Source: Eledone cirrhosa (lineage: Eukaryota). Taken from it: a stretch of DNA of 64,000 nucleotides. Each line of letters begins with the position of its first letter. The stretch's first letter is position 1. Of this stretch, positions 1,541 through 62,578 are shown piece after piece. The notes beneath the pieces are model-generated. The model did not search any database, had not been told where the DNA came from, and worked only from the letters and a program-made list of their open reading frames with translations. The position numbers and the translations under genes were made by a program. The stretch lies in NCBI GenBank assembly GCA_964016885.1, contig OZ024751.1, forward strand, positions 23,436,001 through 23,500,000, given 5' to 3'.

Positions 1541-1731
1541 AGATAATTTAATATATCAACTAACATAGGCGCACAGATGTACGTCCATGCCAGCAAATAC
1601 ACAGGTTATGTCATAGTACCTAGGTGGTTCAATGCAGGAGGGTGCAGAACAATAATATAAAAGACGTAAAATAAGAAAATATCTTTTAAAAAAATTTTTA
1701 AAAAATTTTTTACTTACTTACTTAAATTTTC

Positions 1732-1813
1732 ACTCCAACTAATTAGTTTCTGCAATGGGATAAAGACAGTTACATAATCCAACTGTCGAGAATTCATTGC
1801 GTCATCAGGGAGT
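1732..1813 (-). ncRNA. Type I hammerhead ribozyme (family A)
   Basis: Reverse complement of the 2779-2860 motif. Confidence 0.85.
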
Positions 1814-2778
1814 CTATTCTCAGCTGAGCCTCCAGGCAATGCGCGGACACTGGCGGCTCATATAAAAATAATAATTCGGTAGAAAGAACAGCTAGGCGAG
1901 GACTGGATTCTATGTACTGAAATTCTCACTGCTTCCAGTCAAATGGCCGATTCTAAAGAATCAATCACGTGACATAGAGGCCAGTTAGAAGGAATGGGAT
2001 GGTAAGATGACTGACGCCTACTAACACCCCAAAAAAAATTTTGAAGTGGTTTTGGCAGGTTTGCTCGACAAATCAGTGATTTGGAGATAAATATAGATAA
2101 TTTAATATATCAACTAACATAGGCGCACAGATGTACGTCCATGCCAGCAAATACACAGGTTATGTCATAGTACCTAGGTGGTTCAATGCAGGAGGGTGCA
2201 GAACAATAATATAAAAGACGTAAAATAAGAAAATATCTTTTAAAAAAATTTAAAAAAATTTTTTTACTTACTTACTTAAATTTAAAAAAAAAAAAAAAAT
2301 TTTTTTTAAAAAAAAATAAAAAAAAAAAATAATTTTTTTTAAATTTTTTTAAAAGATATTTTCTTATTTTACGTCTTTTATATTATTGTTCTGCACCCTC
2401 CTGCATTGAACCACCTAGGTACTATGACATAACCTGTGTATTTGCTGGCATGGACGTACATCTGTGCGCCTATGTTAGTTGATATATTAAATTATCTATA
2501 TTTATCTCCAAATCACTGATTTGTCGAGCAAACCTGCCAAAACCACTTCAAAATTTTTTTTGGGGTGTTAGTAGGCGTCAGTCATCTTACCATCCCATTC
2601 CTTCTAACTGGCCTCTATGTCACGTGATTGATTCTTTAGAATCGGCCATTTGACTGGAAGCAGTGAGAATTTCAGTACATAGAATCCAGTCCTCGCCTAG
2701 CTGTTCTTTCTAATGAATTATTATTTTTATATGAGCCGCCAGTGTCCGCGCATTGCCTGGAGGCTCAGCTGAGAATAG

Positions 2779-2860
2779 ACTCCCTGATGACGCAATGAAT
2801 TCTCGACAGTTGGATTATGTAACTGTCTTTATCCCATTGCAGAAACTAATTAGTTGGAGT
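2779..2860 (+). ncRNA. Type I hammerhead ribozyme (family A)
   Basis: actcc CTGATGA c gcaatg..gacagtt/aactgtc..cattgc a GAAA ctaattag TT ggagt: stem I actcc/ggagt, extended stem II, palindromic stem III, GUU cleavage after 2855. Confidence 0.88.
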
Positions 2861-3551
2861 GAAAATTTAAGTAAGTAAGTAAAAAATTTTTAAAAAATTT
2901 TTTTAAAAGATATTTTCTTATTTTACGTCTTTTATATATATATATATATGTATATATATATGCATATATATGTGTGTATATGTATATATATGTATATATA
3001 CATACACACACACAGACACACACAGACACACACACACACACACACACACACACACATATATATATATATATATATATATATATGCACTTACGAAACCAAA
3101 TAAATGCGTAGTAAAATCGAATGTGCGAAAGATCATGTGGTTTTACGAAACAGAATTCTAAAGCCACAGAGCCATGCATGCACCTAATAGTCTTAAAAAG
3201 GAATGGGAGATTAGGAAAAATGCTTCCTACCAGATAAACATTTTCTATCAAGAAATAGGAAAATGAACTCATTTTAGTTTGTTTTTATTGTTGCTGAAAT
3301 GTATGAAAAACAAGGGTTGGCTTGCATCAAACTATTTTCTATATATCTTTCTATGAAAAGACAAGGATTTTCCCGCTGGCAACACACCATAAAATAGAAG
3401 TAAGCTGCAATGAAAGCATAATAGCAGCAACGTTTTAAAAATAACGCCAGCATCATTTCTCTCAGAATAATAGCGAATCAACCACCTAAGGATTCGAATA
3501 TAACTGCAGAATACAAAACATTTGTTTGTACCACATCGAATGGCGTTGAAG

Positions 3552-4170
3552 AATATATTGTTCATCACATTTTGCTATAAGATATCGATAGAAAACAAGA
3601 AGAATATATAAAGATATATAAATGACGAAGAAAAATTCGCTTAAATTCTGTTATACACACGCACTATCTATCTATGTACCCTCTCTCACTCTCTTTCCCT
3701 CTCTCTCTTTCACTTTCTCTCTCTCTCTCTCTATCCATCTATATATATATATATATATATATATATATATATATATATATATATATATATATATATATAT
3801 ATATAGTATACATATATATAGATACATATCTGTATGAGTGTGTATACATATATACACAGAAAGAGAGAGAGAGATAAATGTATGTGGTTTAAGACTGTGT
3901 TTTTGTATCTCTGTGGTTGTCTTGTCATATCTTTATTTTATATATATATATATATATATATATATATATATATATATAGATAGATAGAGAGAGAGAGAGA
4001 GAAAGTGAGAGAGAGAGAGAGGGAAAGAGAGTGAGAGAGGGTACATAGATAGATAGTGTGTGTGTATAACAGAATTTAAGCGAATTTTTCTTCGTCATTT
4101 ATATATCTTTATATATTCTTCTTGTTTTCTATCGATATCTTATAGCAAAATGTGATGAACAATATATTAT
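3552..4170. repeat. Inverted duplication of flanking DNA (3552-3730 vs 3979-4170) around (TA)n tracts
   Basis: ttcatcacattttgctataagatatcgatag... is mirrored as ctatcgatatcttatagcaaaatgtgatgaa. Confidence 0.9.
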
Positions 4171-4227
4171 TACTATATATATATATATATATATATATAT
4201 ATATATATATATATATATATATATATA

Positions 4228-59615: not shown

Positions 59616-59657
59616 TAACCCTAACCCTAACCCTAACCCTAACCCTAACCTTAACCC
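59616..59657. repeat. Interstitial (TAACCC)n repeat
   Basis: About 7 units. Confidence 0.9.
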
Positions 59658-60019
59658 TTTTATTACAATAGTCTATGAATTTCAAATTATTTTGATAGAT
59701 TTCGTCGTCATAATTAACTCTTCTTATAATATAAAACTTTCGTTGGGAGCAAAACTGAGAGCTTAACATTTCTTACACAAAGTTATGATGGAAGGTTTTA
59801 AGATGTAAACAGTTTAACTCTTCCTGTAAATTTGTAAATAAAAGACGCTGCCTATAATTTTCATTTAATTTTGAAAATAATCAAGTAATTAATATAACCA
59901 ACTCTCTCATTTATAATCTTGGGTTTAGAATATAACCTAATAAAGGTTGTTACATAAAATTATAATTGTTAATGCAGTGTTTGTTATTAAGATATTAGGA
60001 AAACTATATAACTCCCTGT

Positions 60020-60245
60020 GGAGGCACCTGGCACAGTGAATCTGATATTTGGCTTACAATCGTAAAGTCCTGAGTTTGGTTCTCGGCGACTCTCCATTCT
60101 GTCAGCAGGGACTGTGGGGAGGCCAGCACGTGGGACCACATTTTCTCACCATACGGAGAGATGGGGAGGGCGAGAGAGATGGAGGTGATGACAGTAGGAG
60201 TTCGGCTCTTCCCCGTTCGGACCATATCCTTGTGATTGTGTTCAT
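60020..60245 (+). mobile_element. Third tRNA-related SINE family, full-length
   Basis: tggcacagtga box A-like and gagtttggttc box B-like; body shared with 6760-6912. Confidence 0.65.
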
Positions 60246-61449
60246 CAAGCCGTAGTGCAGTAATGAAATATATGTAAAAATAATTAACCACAAAGACATA
60301 CTATTTCGTGTTAAATGAATTGTAATTGTGATTCATATGGCTAGCAGCCTTGAATCTTCCAGAGAACTACGTTACGTTAATAGTACACGTGTCTTTAGAA
60401 TGATCAGCCATTTACATGTTAATTTCAGGAGCAGGAAACACTTTTCGAACAATTTCGAACAACTGGAACTCTTATTGTCTGAACCGATAGATATTCAACA
60501 CCACCACCACCACCAACAACAACAACAATAACAACAACAACCATATAATTGATTACATAATTCTTATGCGCATTCATTTATAAAAAAATACTTTATGACC
60601 CATTAGCAAAAATATTTTTTTCTCACAATACACACATTGTGAAATCCACATAAAAGGTTGATGCTAGCATATTGTGATCTTCATAGCGTTTTCATTACGG
60701 AATAAGTTTTGTTTCTAAAATGTTTACAATCTTGTAAATGGTAGGAAATATATTTCCATCAGTTTGGCACTTGAGACGATAAGAATCAACCGAGTTTATA
60801 CACTTGACATTATTTTTAGATAATCTGAGAGTATATCTGGCATTTTGTCATAACTTCTAGGAGGAAATTTTAATTTCTCTTCATTCACCGTTAAGGAAAA
60901 GAGGCACCCTTTTAAAAATCACACACAAACACACAAAATCTCACAGCCACACACACACATATATATAAATAAATAAATGCATACATATATATATAGGTCA
61001 CTGATGTAACTGATTATATATATATATATATATATATATATATATATATATATATATATATATATATATATATATATATATATATATATTTATATATATT
61101 CATAAATATAAACACTAAATAGTAATTTGAAAGCTTTAAAAATGTGGTTTTAATAAAGCAAATTCATATTACGTCTTTTTCTTCTATATTTCCATTTAAG
61201 TAGATGTATGGAAATGAATAATTTCATTGTGTTCTGCTACAAAACCCTTAGTTAATAAATATTATATATAAATATTTACATTTGTCTAAATAAAAAAGAA
61301 GGAATCGAATTCATGATATTGATTCTATTTCGATTAGAAGCAACATGGTGATCATAGAATTTTAAGCGATAACATTTTTTATCATATTTTACAGATTTAT
61401 CGTAAGAATTAATAGCTTTCCACAGACTTTGAGTAGATGGTAAAATATA

Positions 61450-61662
61450 TTGGTTTCTTATATAGGCACAAGGCCAGCACTTTTGAGGGAGGGGAAAGTC
61501 GATTAAATCGACCCCAGTGCGTGACTGGTACTTTATTTTATCGACCCCGTAAGGATGAAAGGCAAAGTTAATCTCGGCGGGATTTGAATTCAGATCATAA
61601 AGGGCCGTAACTCATTGCTGTAAAGCATAGCGTTCGACACTCTACCGATACTGCCAATACAC
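61450..61662 (-). mobile_element. Meta-domain-type tRNA SINE (long-tail variant)
   Basis: Family consensus with ggggaaagtcgattaaatcgacccc segment. Confidence 0.9.
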
Positions 61663-62578
61663 CAGACGGTAAGATATATTAGTCTTTCATCTATTTTCTC
61701 TTCACCCAGAGTTTTGCTGCTCACCCGCCCTCCCACCTACCCACGTACCTACGTACATACCTAACCTACATACATACGTACGTAAAAAAACATATATACT
61801 TACGTACGTACATACATACATGCATGCATGCATTTAAACATGCATGCATGCATACATACATACGTACATACATACGTATATACATACACACACACACACA
61901 CACACACATCATACACACACAAACACACACACACACACACACATATATATATATATATATATATATATATATATAACGAAGGAAATGTGGTAAGGAACCA
62001 AGTGGAGAATAACGCACCAAAGTACTCAATACTTAGGGTAGTAGAGTGGGTAATAGGAACGAGTAGGACCCCGACGGCTGAGCTCATACCTTTTCGACGG
62101 CTAATTCTGGACGCAGAATTAGCCGTCGAAACGGCCTGAGCTCAGCCGTCGGGGTCCTACTTGTTCCTATATATATATATATATATATATATATATATAT
62201 ATATATATATATATATATATATATAGTAATAATAATAAATGCGAAAACTAAAATCCAAAGAGGGCTCGATAAGTATAAATATATCATATCAAATATATAA
62301 GAGCATGTTAAAGGTGAAAGAAGCGATTCTTTGCTTAAACTTTAATCTGTTATTTTAATAAATATTTGCTCTACAGTTTTTATATATACTTACATATATA
62401 TAATCCTTATCGAGCCCTCTTCGGATTTTAGTCTTCACATTTATATATATATATATATAATAATTGTTTCTATTTGTTTCTATATATATAATAATAATGA
62501 TACTATTTATAGTTATGTATATACTATAAACAACTATAAACAGGAAAGTTCAGTAATTATATGTACAAACATTGTTAA

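Follow-up and report, generated by a model that had tools for sequence, protein, structure and literature searches.

We analysed a 64,000-nt stretch of Eledone cirrhosa DNA (contig OZ024751.1, positions 23,436,001 to 23,500,000), referred to here as the window. At 18 of 18 sites listed in a preliminary description, a two-arm inverted insert lies in or adjoins a (TA)n tract. As that description stated, the arms are arranged head-to-head, with the left arm on the minus strand and the right arm on the plus strand. The sites represent seven Penelope-like element (PLE) families, A to G, and each family has two fixed 3′ ends, a short one (S) and a tailed one (L) that extends 47 to ~140 nt further. 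A script paired 17 of the window joins, and the join at 33503 was paired by eye. The pairs, followed by two single arms, are:

1542..2932: family A, ~555-nt unit with hammerhead-like core, partial tandem on either side; junction 2283/2327; outer ends left L, right S
4228..4308: family B; left L (just the last 26 nt of the tail), right S
9214..9400: family D; left S, right L
12003..12193: family E; left S, right L
12630..12815: family F (variant subfamily); left S, right L
17955..18075: family E; left L (tail only), right S
20162..20401: family B; left L, right S; S arm extends more 5′ than L arm
22789..23213: family F; left S, right L
29831..30368: family G; left L, right S; polarity read solely from motif and ends
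33506..33610: family C; left L (tail), right S of ~20 bp, by eye
35705..35894: family C; left S, right L
39209..39408: family C (second subfamily); left S, right L
44442..44680: family B; left L, right S
44877..45199: family F (variant subfamily); left S, right L
47939..48168: family B; left S, right L
53635..53767: family B; left S, right L (tail part only); arms without overlap
61976..62167: family C; left L, right S
62226..62441: family B; L at both ends
27823..28795, minus strand: single family F arm with a C-terminal GIY-YIG-type endonuclease region, which sets the family F sense
55330..55947, plus strand: single family F arm whose S end runs into (TA)n

Element identity and sense of the inserts

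The pairs derive from PLEs. In families F, B, D and C, which account for 14 of the 18 sites, sense is anchored by an RT/GIY-YIG ORF located upstream on the same strand. The family F ORF encodes 1,213 amino acids, with RT motifs and a GIY-YIG-like C-terminus recognized by eye; a Pfam search of this protein returned no match, and PF00078 and PF01541 are present in its homologs. Families B, D and C have related ORFs upstream. Because the EN is C-terminal in families F, D and C, these are not Naiads. For family E the linkage is suggestive: at one locus (L211), the same strand carries a PLE-type ORF ~2.5 kb upstream. We found no linked ORF for families A and G, nor an ORF within the ~555-nt family A unit, and polarity in these two families was read from the hammerhead-like core and from where the ends meet TA.

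The partial or full tandems that characterize the pLTRs of EN+ PLEs are present, with family F units of ~4.1 kb each in tandem and partial tandems at loci L013, L018, L022 and L024. Also present is the inverted, 5′-truncated, head-to-head copy with a tail at one end that is found in EN+ PLEs. The EN PLEs described with an inverted pLTR and a "tail", D. virilis Penelope and A. vaga Pen1-6 (PMC3846280, PMC8557442, PMC2377424), share with our elements an ORF combining RT and C-terminal GIY-YIG, partial tandems, AT-rich or (TA)n targets, a 5′-truncated inverted copy placed head-to-head (the form "most frequently observed") and a tail on one inverted end. In contrast, most pairs here are tiny and contain no ORF, and the tails are longer than the 30–40 nt given in the relevant passages of the Penelope papers.

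By eye, hammerhead cores look canonical in families A, D, E, H and I and variant in B, with none clear in C. Rfam gave 0 matches at gathering score and no hammerhead among the best 150 of 370 weak matches, and minimum-energy folds yielded no clear three-way junction for the hammerhead-like motifs. Minimal PLE hammerheads are described as atypical (PMC4209133).

Head-to-head polarity in arbitrary blocks

Polarity was counted in 12 arbitrarily chosen 100-kb blocks (1.2 Mb of the genome), one of which, block C2, is without TA tracts and contributed zero arms. Direct same-family inverted joins were head-to-head in 63 of 63 cases (p = 2e-19), like those at the listed sites. Head-to-head neighbours numbered 65, comprising these 63 and two cross-family cases with TA between, which bears out the earlier proposal that both target ends prime on the same RNA family. 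Gaps between the arms are mostly −4 to +4 nt, in keeping with the proposed joining of two cDNAs at their 5′ ends. The claim that tail-to-tail cases are absent stands for direct same-family joins but not for neighbours: tail-to-tail neighbours with TA between occur five times in the window and eight times in the blocks, and the blocks contain one direct tail-to-tail join, between two different families. To some extent this absence is inherent, since almost all 3′ ends terminate in TA.

Direct pairs comprise 126 of the 259 block arms; some of the remainder may be long arms whose partner was missed by the reference sequences used. TA adjoins both outer ends in 42 of the 63 direct pairs, and among 47 other inverted repeats touching TA, contact is one-sided in 38. 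Head-to-head inverted pLTRs, one-sided tails and (TA)n targets have already been published (PMC3846280, PMC8557442), as has the head-to-head rule itself (PMC3846280), and the polarity taken alone is ordinary.

Palindromes and long TA tracts are error-prone, and no read or contig spanned the site at 22787. Even so, it is hardly credible that the pairs are assembly or long-read fold-back artefacts: the two arms are not identical in sequence and terminate at distinct points that are fixed for the family, and in raw 150-nt Illumina reads from three samples of a separate study, strand-switch joints appear where they are expected for family C.

Two fixed 3′ ends and a 5′ stop

The 3′ ends are sharply bimodal in families B–F, and TA-rich sequence follows S in every family from A to G. 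In family F, both the next unit and the ORF begin with the tail. One S and one L end are combined at 17 of the 18 window sites, in 56 of 56 classifiable direct pairs from the arbitrary blocks (0 L+L, 0 S+S, 7 unclassified; p = 3e-17) and in 34 of 34 classifiable pairs (6 unclassified) from 48 loci chosen by 5′ motif. Among long pairs, S+L was found in 7 of 8 in family C (the other being without a class) and 2 of 2 in family E, and a 27-kb palindrome of tandem full-length family F units has S as its left end and L as its right end. The exceptions are the window site 62225, with two tailed ends, and locus L023, with S at both outer ends. The S+L rule is drawn from these samples (window, blocks and selected loci); 30 family B loci were left out of all S/L counts, their palindromic query itself being S+L. 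Apparent S+S ends in long family F pairs were an effect of a reference without the tail and disappeared with a proper reference.

The observation behind the preliminary description is thus real and its polarity rule known, but the symmetry that it proposed is wrong, since each of the two ends is served by a fixed start site of its own. A model in which the two ends of a (TA)n break prime symmetrically and independently accounts for the head-to-head polarity, the shared family of the arms and the TA at both outer ends. However, independent choice predicts that about half of the pairs would be S+S or L+L, and we saw 0 of 56 and 0 of 34; we consider this model very improbable. Nicks made by the element would also be a simpler source of the ends than repair of TA breaks, because the elements encode their own putative GIY-YIG nickase.

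Alternatively, a few S+L palindromic master copies could have been amplified whole, in which case the pairs are not independent events. Of the 30 loci found with the palindromic query, over half share one family B junction, and one family C junction recurs several times, as such amplification would produce. Other junctions, however, are diverse, and long pairs with unique junctions inside the ORF follow the same S+L rule. Furthermore, 5′-truncated copies of a palindrome should often lose the outer S end, whereas an unfinished end occurs in 2 of 63 pairs. We give this explanation little credence.

At the other end of the arms, families B, C, D and E show a pile-up of 5′ ends at a single AG that shortly precedes the hammerhead-like motif; no pile-up was found in families F, A and G. 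Genome-wide, the base preceding the family B stop is G in 1,532 and A in 679 cases (G and A counts only). One base beyond, 20 G and 46 A were counted by eye in the first 100 of 820 rows, and the uncut family B element has T at the base before the stop in 100 of the first 100 rows. Cap copying by RT can yield an extra 5′ G, and the G before the family B stop is what would be expected from copying a cap; some of the extra Gs could derive from the partner arm, for example at loci L224, L229, L235 and L238. At loci L227, L234 and L242, a spacer separates two arms that stop at an identical 5′ base plus G, a pattern compatible with two separate run-offs. A splice acceptor, as in D. virilis, where an intron ends at hammerhead helix I (PMC4209133), is a less favoured reading of the pile-up, because the AG is retained in the arms and no common upstream exon is present in 20 loci.

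Coupling of the two arms and its possible origin

In 71 unbiased pairs, the L arm ends more than 10 nt short of the S arm in 34, within 10 nt of it in 29 and further in 8. Because the ends differ in both directions, neither arm simply copies the other. L arms do not pass S in 18 of the 71 pairs, and the remainder overlap the S arm. An excess of L arms stopping at S (a collision peak) was sought and not found, the histogram being flat from −50 to +10; this counts against collision on one RNA, since such a collision might make L arms stop at S. Arm lengths are coupled, with both arms long in 6 pairs, only L long in 0, only S long in 3 and both short in 97 (p = 5e-8; pooled set that includes selected loci). 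Arms are also nearer to their own partner than to the median of other copies (21 of 23 in family C, 13 of 14 in E and 19 of 21 in F), a similarity that could reflect two RNAs of one source locus or later gene conversion.

In sum, the inserts are head-to-head, each family has two sharply defined 3′ ends, a pair combines one S with one L end, both arms come from the same family, and families B, C, D and E have a common 5′ stop. Coupled asymmetric dual priming is the best reading of these features, with a single RNA likely. Specifically, we lean towards a model in which, when EN PLEs insert into (TA)n, one complex extends both target ends from fixed S and L starts, probably using a single RNA, and the far cDNA ends are then joined. 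The element's GIY-YIG enzyme would nick both strands of the TA tract and, within a dimer, one RT would start at S and the other at L. The trailing L copy would stop short or displace the S copy, and host end-joining would fuse both cDNA ends. Very short pairs may arise when priming takes place in the 5′ pLTR of a capped transcript; both RTs would then run off the RNA 5′ end at a predicted start ~50–70 nt above S, often adding a cap-derived G. Kilobase arms and tandem arrays may arise by priming in a downstream pLTR of a read-through RNA.

S and L correspond to the two RT start sites mapped on either side of the tail, close to where the ORF begins, in the in vitro TPRT system of PAc (Poseidon of Anolis; PMC11167929). 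The dual S+L start is favoured because the family F tail, like those sites, marks the start of the next unit and ORF. According to that paper, the PAc enzyme, a predicted dimer, nicks and extends both strands and uses uncleaved hammerhead RNA as template. PAc primes without homology, whereas TA-like bases follow S in our families A–G; the passages of the paper concerned do not address inverted insertions, whereas here S and L are coupled across the insertion. Against such coupling, the in vitro RT start sites were alike on the top and the bottom strand (PMC11167929), although the relevant passages do not describe coupling on individual molecules.

An asymmetric dimer could instead hold two same-family RNAs, one used at S and one at L, each priming one target end. 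This arrangement would give S+L and overlapping arms without strand displacement or a collision peak at S, and the predicted dimer of the Anolis enzyme (PMC11167929) is compatible with it. However, the coupled lengths and partner similarity would require the two RNAs to share a length class and a subfamily, and direct cross-family head-to-head joins number 0 in the blocks; we regard two RNAs as unlikely.

Self-priming has been proposed for PLE inverted repeats (PMC3846280), with "EN-mediated resolution" in PMC8557442: a cDNA or antisense template would fold at the junction palindrome and be copied back, and the endonuclease would trim one end to S. Many short pairs have near-perfect junction palindromes, the 29 of 71 pairs ending within 10 nt fit a fold-back, and the TA-rich sequence after S could be a cut site. 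However, the S arm has sequence that the L arm lacks in 34 of 71 pairs and the reverse holds in 8, which already weakens fold-back for non-nested pairs, and the spaced arms sharing a 5′ base plus G at L227, L234 and L242 fit separate run-offs. We judge self-priming distinctly unlikely.

Dual priming resembles L1 twin priming, in which the second target end primes internally on the RNA and end-joining yields a 5′ inversion (PMC11702581). In L1, the internal site is variable and the pieces abut within 1–10 bp; here the site is fixed and the arms usually overlap, just 18 of 71 L arms stopping at or before S. Inversion is also a main outcome here, unlike in L1 twin priming.

More broadly, dual priming could be the default Penelope reaction, a proposal that we advance tentatively, as a serious possibility rather than an expectation. 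A dimer would employ S and L as a fixed pair, each serving one target strand, with one capped RNA as template, and the inverted pLTR with its one-sided tail would be the direct product. Tens of thousands of tiny palindromes would then represent "strong-stop" products run off the 5′ pLTR, leaving in the genome a record of where transcription starts and of the cap. PMC8557442 and PMC3846280 list the origin of PLE inverted repeats and of the one-sided tail among open questions; passages of the Penelope papers describe the tail as optional or "often only at one end", without counts, whereas here one S and one L end are near-obligate. We did not find an obligate S+L rule in the open-access literature; one may be contained in subscription papers or supplements, such as Fig. 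S2 of PMC11167929. Three features speak against both self-priming and independent priming, namely S+L pairing that is near-obligate, arms that are not nested and the cap-like G, and the pairing hands the PAc in vitro system (PMC11167929) a sharp prediction.

S+L inserts account for a large part of the short palindromes in the genome, which is TA-rich and in which single exact motifs of families B and E have ~10,000 occurrences each. Family A and an array in block C5 (80,934–83,024) resemble non-LTR retrozymes, described as short hammerhead-bearing tandem units derived from PLE pLTRs (bioRxiv 10.64898/2026.07.22.740005). Unlike these, the units here occur mostly as monomer pieces arranged in inverted pairs rather than as tandems.

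Families and polarity of the inverted insertions

The window (G000:C11:23,436,001-23,500,000) is TA-rich animal DNA, and self-comparison confirms that its palindromes are real. Penelope-like elements (PLEs) of seven families occupy 18 sites, each insertion consisting of two inverted arms. As the preliminary description had stated, the left arm is minus-strand and the right arm plus-strand at 18/18 sites (33503 read by eye). The sites, named by start position, are:

1541: family A
4228, 20161, 44441, 47938, 53633, 62225: family B
33503, 35704, 39208, 61974: family C
9213: family D
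12002, 17955: family E
12628, 22787, 44876: family F
29831: family G

Because a palindrome has no direction until its sense is known, we searched for ORFs. A PLE-type ORF lies upstream on the same strand in families B (3 loci), D and C as well as in F, and ORF-based sense anchors 14 of the 18 sites. One ORF link is suggestive for family E; none was found for families A and G. Tool evidence for hammerheads, from Rfam and folding, is weak, and the motifs were recognised by eye. The best named homolog of the PLE protein is from Octopus vulgaris (68% identity). Family F, a young PLE that is abundant in the genome, has 33,091 first-look candidates, and its 150 scored copies are 95-100% identical. 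Its ORF (P0001, L013:3987-7625) carries a long asparagine-rich insert ahead of the RT, like the N-rich inserts that a passage of PMC3846280 describes in A. vaga Penelopes.

The census of arm orientation proposed in the preliminary description was made on a sample of twelve 100-kb blocks, taken at round coordinates on 12 contigs, with natural copies as arm-mapping references. Direct same-family inverted joins number 63 and include 126 of the 259 block arms; all 63 are head-to-head. Direct tail-to-tail joins in the blocks comprise none within a family and one between different families. Tail-to-tail neighbours separated by TA do occur, numbering 8 in the blocks and 5 in the window, and most of them belong to different families within one common tract. 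Genome listings agree with the block census: among the first 100 exact matches listed for each family, read by eye, the order minus-then-plus against its reverse was 19 vs 0 for family B and 20 vs 1 for family E, counting neighbours on opposite strands no more than 5 kb apart.

Raw Illumina reads from three samples of another study, which are not locus-specific and give no joint direction, contain strand-switch joints at the positions expected for family C; about 2,800-3,200 reads per run, likewise not locus-specific, enter (TA)n at its short 3′ end. No record spanning site 22787 was found among the sequence records searched. We consider it exceedingly improbable that the arrangement is an artefact.

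Passages of PMC3846280 give head-to-head as the most frequent arrangement, with a tail on one inverted pLTR. Parts of PMC8557442 describe PLEs in Octopus and an inverted 5′-truncated copy, a tail often at one end only and (TA)n targets, and an excerpt of PMC2377424 reports inverted terminal repeats in D. virilis. The finding as first put forward is therefore already known, and the polarity rule is ordinary; the families described here are new, and of a known kind. L1 twin priming differs in that the L1 pieces abut within 1-10 bp, according to a section of PMC11702581.

Pairing of two distinct 3′ ends

Within each family the 3′ ends are bimodal, with a short fixed end (S) and, 47 to about 140 nt beyond it, a tailed fixed end (L); one divergent family A copy had a longer L end before trimming. 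In family F the tail is where both the ORF and the following tandem unit begin. Each of the 56 classifiable block pairs, out of 63, has one S and one L (32 L-left, 24 S-left), and in the other seven an end is diverged or unfinished. This contradicts the symmetric priming at (TA)n breaks that had been proposed for the pairs. The symmetry claim is wrong, and independent, symmetric priming of the arms is a very improbable origin.

The same coupling recurs in selected loci. Among 48 loci chosen by 5′ motif, 34 of 40 joins are L+S, none S+S or L+L, and 6 unclassified; long pairs are L+S in 7/8 cases in family C (one unresolved) and 2/2 in family E. Loci selected by ORF or UTR follow L+S at 31 of 35 joins. 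Of the remaining four, two are L+L joins internal to tandems that have L and S as outer ends, one was scored S+S and is L+S when read by eye, and one has an unfinished end. True exceptions are window site 62225 (L+L) and the fetched locus L023, which is L+S at its inner join and S+S at its outer ends. A head-to-head palindrome of 27 kb, built of full-length family F units in tandem (G000:C6:30,043,476-30,070,762; L117-L120), obeys S+L, with S left, L right, about 99.9% identity and no internal gap, and suggests multimeric or circular templates. A family-blind check covered 73 further inverted repeats that have no TA inside; 47 of them meet TA at an outer end, with both sides doing so in 9 and a single side in 38. 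In the open-access main text searched, we found neither near-obligate S+L coupling nor a cap-like G (described below). The S/L asymmetry offers a useful constraint, itself open to testing, on how these insertions form.

Arm 5′ ends and a possible mechanism

In families B, C, D and E, 80/106 S arms and 51/106 L arms have their 5′ end 50-70 nt above S; 20 of these 5′-stop loci were chosen on that very end, and the cluster is also present in the unbiased pair list. An AG immediately ahead of the hammerhead-like core marks the stop. No 5′ pile-up was found in families F, A and G. Genome-wide, the base before the AG in family B is G in 1,532 cases and A in 679; the uncut element has T in 100/100 of the first rows listed. 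At the next base out the ratio flips: the first 100 rows, from a total of 820, have 20 G, 46 A and 34 C (Fisher p 2e-10). Native upstream sequence was present in 0/20 fetched family B G loci, and in several of these the two arms, separated by a spacer, stop at the same AG with a G added. Copying of a 5′ cap would leave an extra G, which makes it likely that transcription starts at the AG. The rival reading, drawn from part of PMC4209133, takes it as a splice acceptor.

Among 71 unbiased pairs, the S arm extends over 10 nt past the 5′ end of the L arm in 34, the two ends differ by at most 10 nt in 29, and the L arm reaches further in 8; thus, as a general rule, neither arm arose by folding back and copying its partner. 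Self-priming, proposed in antisense form as the origin in a passage of PMC3846280, is unlikely here. L arms fail to pass S in 18/71, and their stops form no peak at S, which speaks against a simple collision model. Arms are closer to their partner than to the family median in 21/23 cases in family C, 13/14 in E, 19/21 in F and 1/2 in B. Arm lengths are coupled in families B-E (pooled with selected loci): both arms are long in 6 pairs and short in 97, the S arm alone is long in 3, and the L arm alone in 0.

Sections of PMC11167929 report a PLE protein, a predicted dimer, that nicks both strands and extends them, uses uncleaved RNA and starts RT at two sites bounding the tail near the ORF start. 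We hypothesize that a single complex starts at S on one strand of the target and at L on the opposite strand, probably with the same RNA for both. On a capped transcript, initiation in the 5′ pLTR would yield the tiny run-off pairs; kilobase arms and tandems would come from read-through RNA primed in a downstream pLTR, and end-joining would fuse the cDNAs. We regard this scheme as moderately probable, and allow a small but real chance that two RNAs were used on an asymmetric dimer. Descent of the pairs from master palindromes appears improbable.

Other repeats nearby

Further window features are:

25240-25411, 48193-48373, 53350-53494, 53792-53864: two more hammerhead-like families, H and I
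56855-57016: S arm of family C joined to an inverted stretch of about 100 nt resembling the tail of another C-like subfamily
3549-4171, 9746-10014, 11519-12468, 24918-25289: flanking DNA duplicated inverted around a TA tract or microsatellite
5200-6204, 40428-41030, 57900-58530: pieces of a non-LTR-like ORF end
7121-8321: 29-bp minisatellite, 41 copies, 95% matches
32103-32273, 54642-54906: very common SINE-like repeat forming local palindromes without TA flanks
13084-14275, 33630-34684, 42700-43626: direct two-copy duplications, 440-590 bp, 96-100% identical

Most arms of families H and I stand singly; they have one 3′ end, which often leads into (CA)n or (TA)n, and 0/23 of their block arms lie in direct pairs. 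The feature at 56855-57016 is possibly a chimeric pair, absent from the preliminary list. The four inverted duplications (copies 94-99% identical) are not PLE S/L pairs and may be fold-backs at TA tracts; a few dozen of 128 other local inverted-repeat matches have TA inside. The non-LTR-like pieces, which border on (AAT)n, (TTC)n or (TATG)n, gave no Pfam match and presumably resemble restriction-like endonuclease LINEs. Single copies of the minisatellite unit lie in short elements at ~11740 and ~45240, and the direct duplications at 13084-14275 and 33630-34684 end at a TA tract. Genome-wide, the core motif of family E shows a strand bias (6,201 forward vs 3,625 reverse) that family B lacks; the bias may reflect a large tandem array. 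A small retrozyme-like array of ~310-bp E-related units, arranged as two inverted halves, lies at 80,934-83,024 of block C5.
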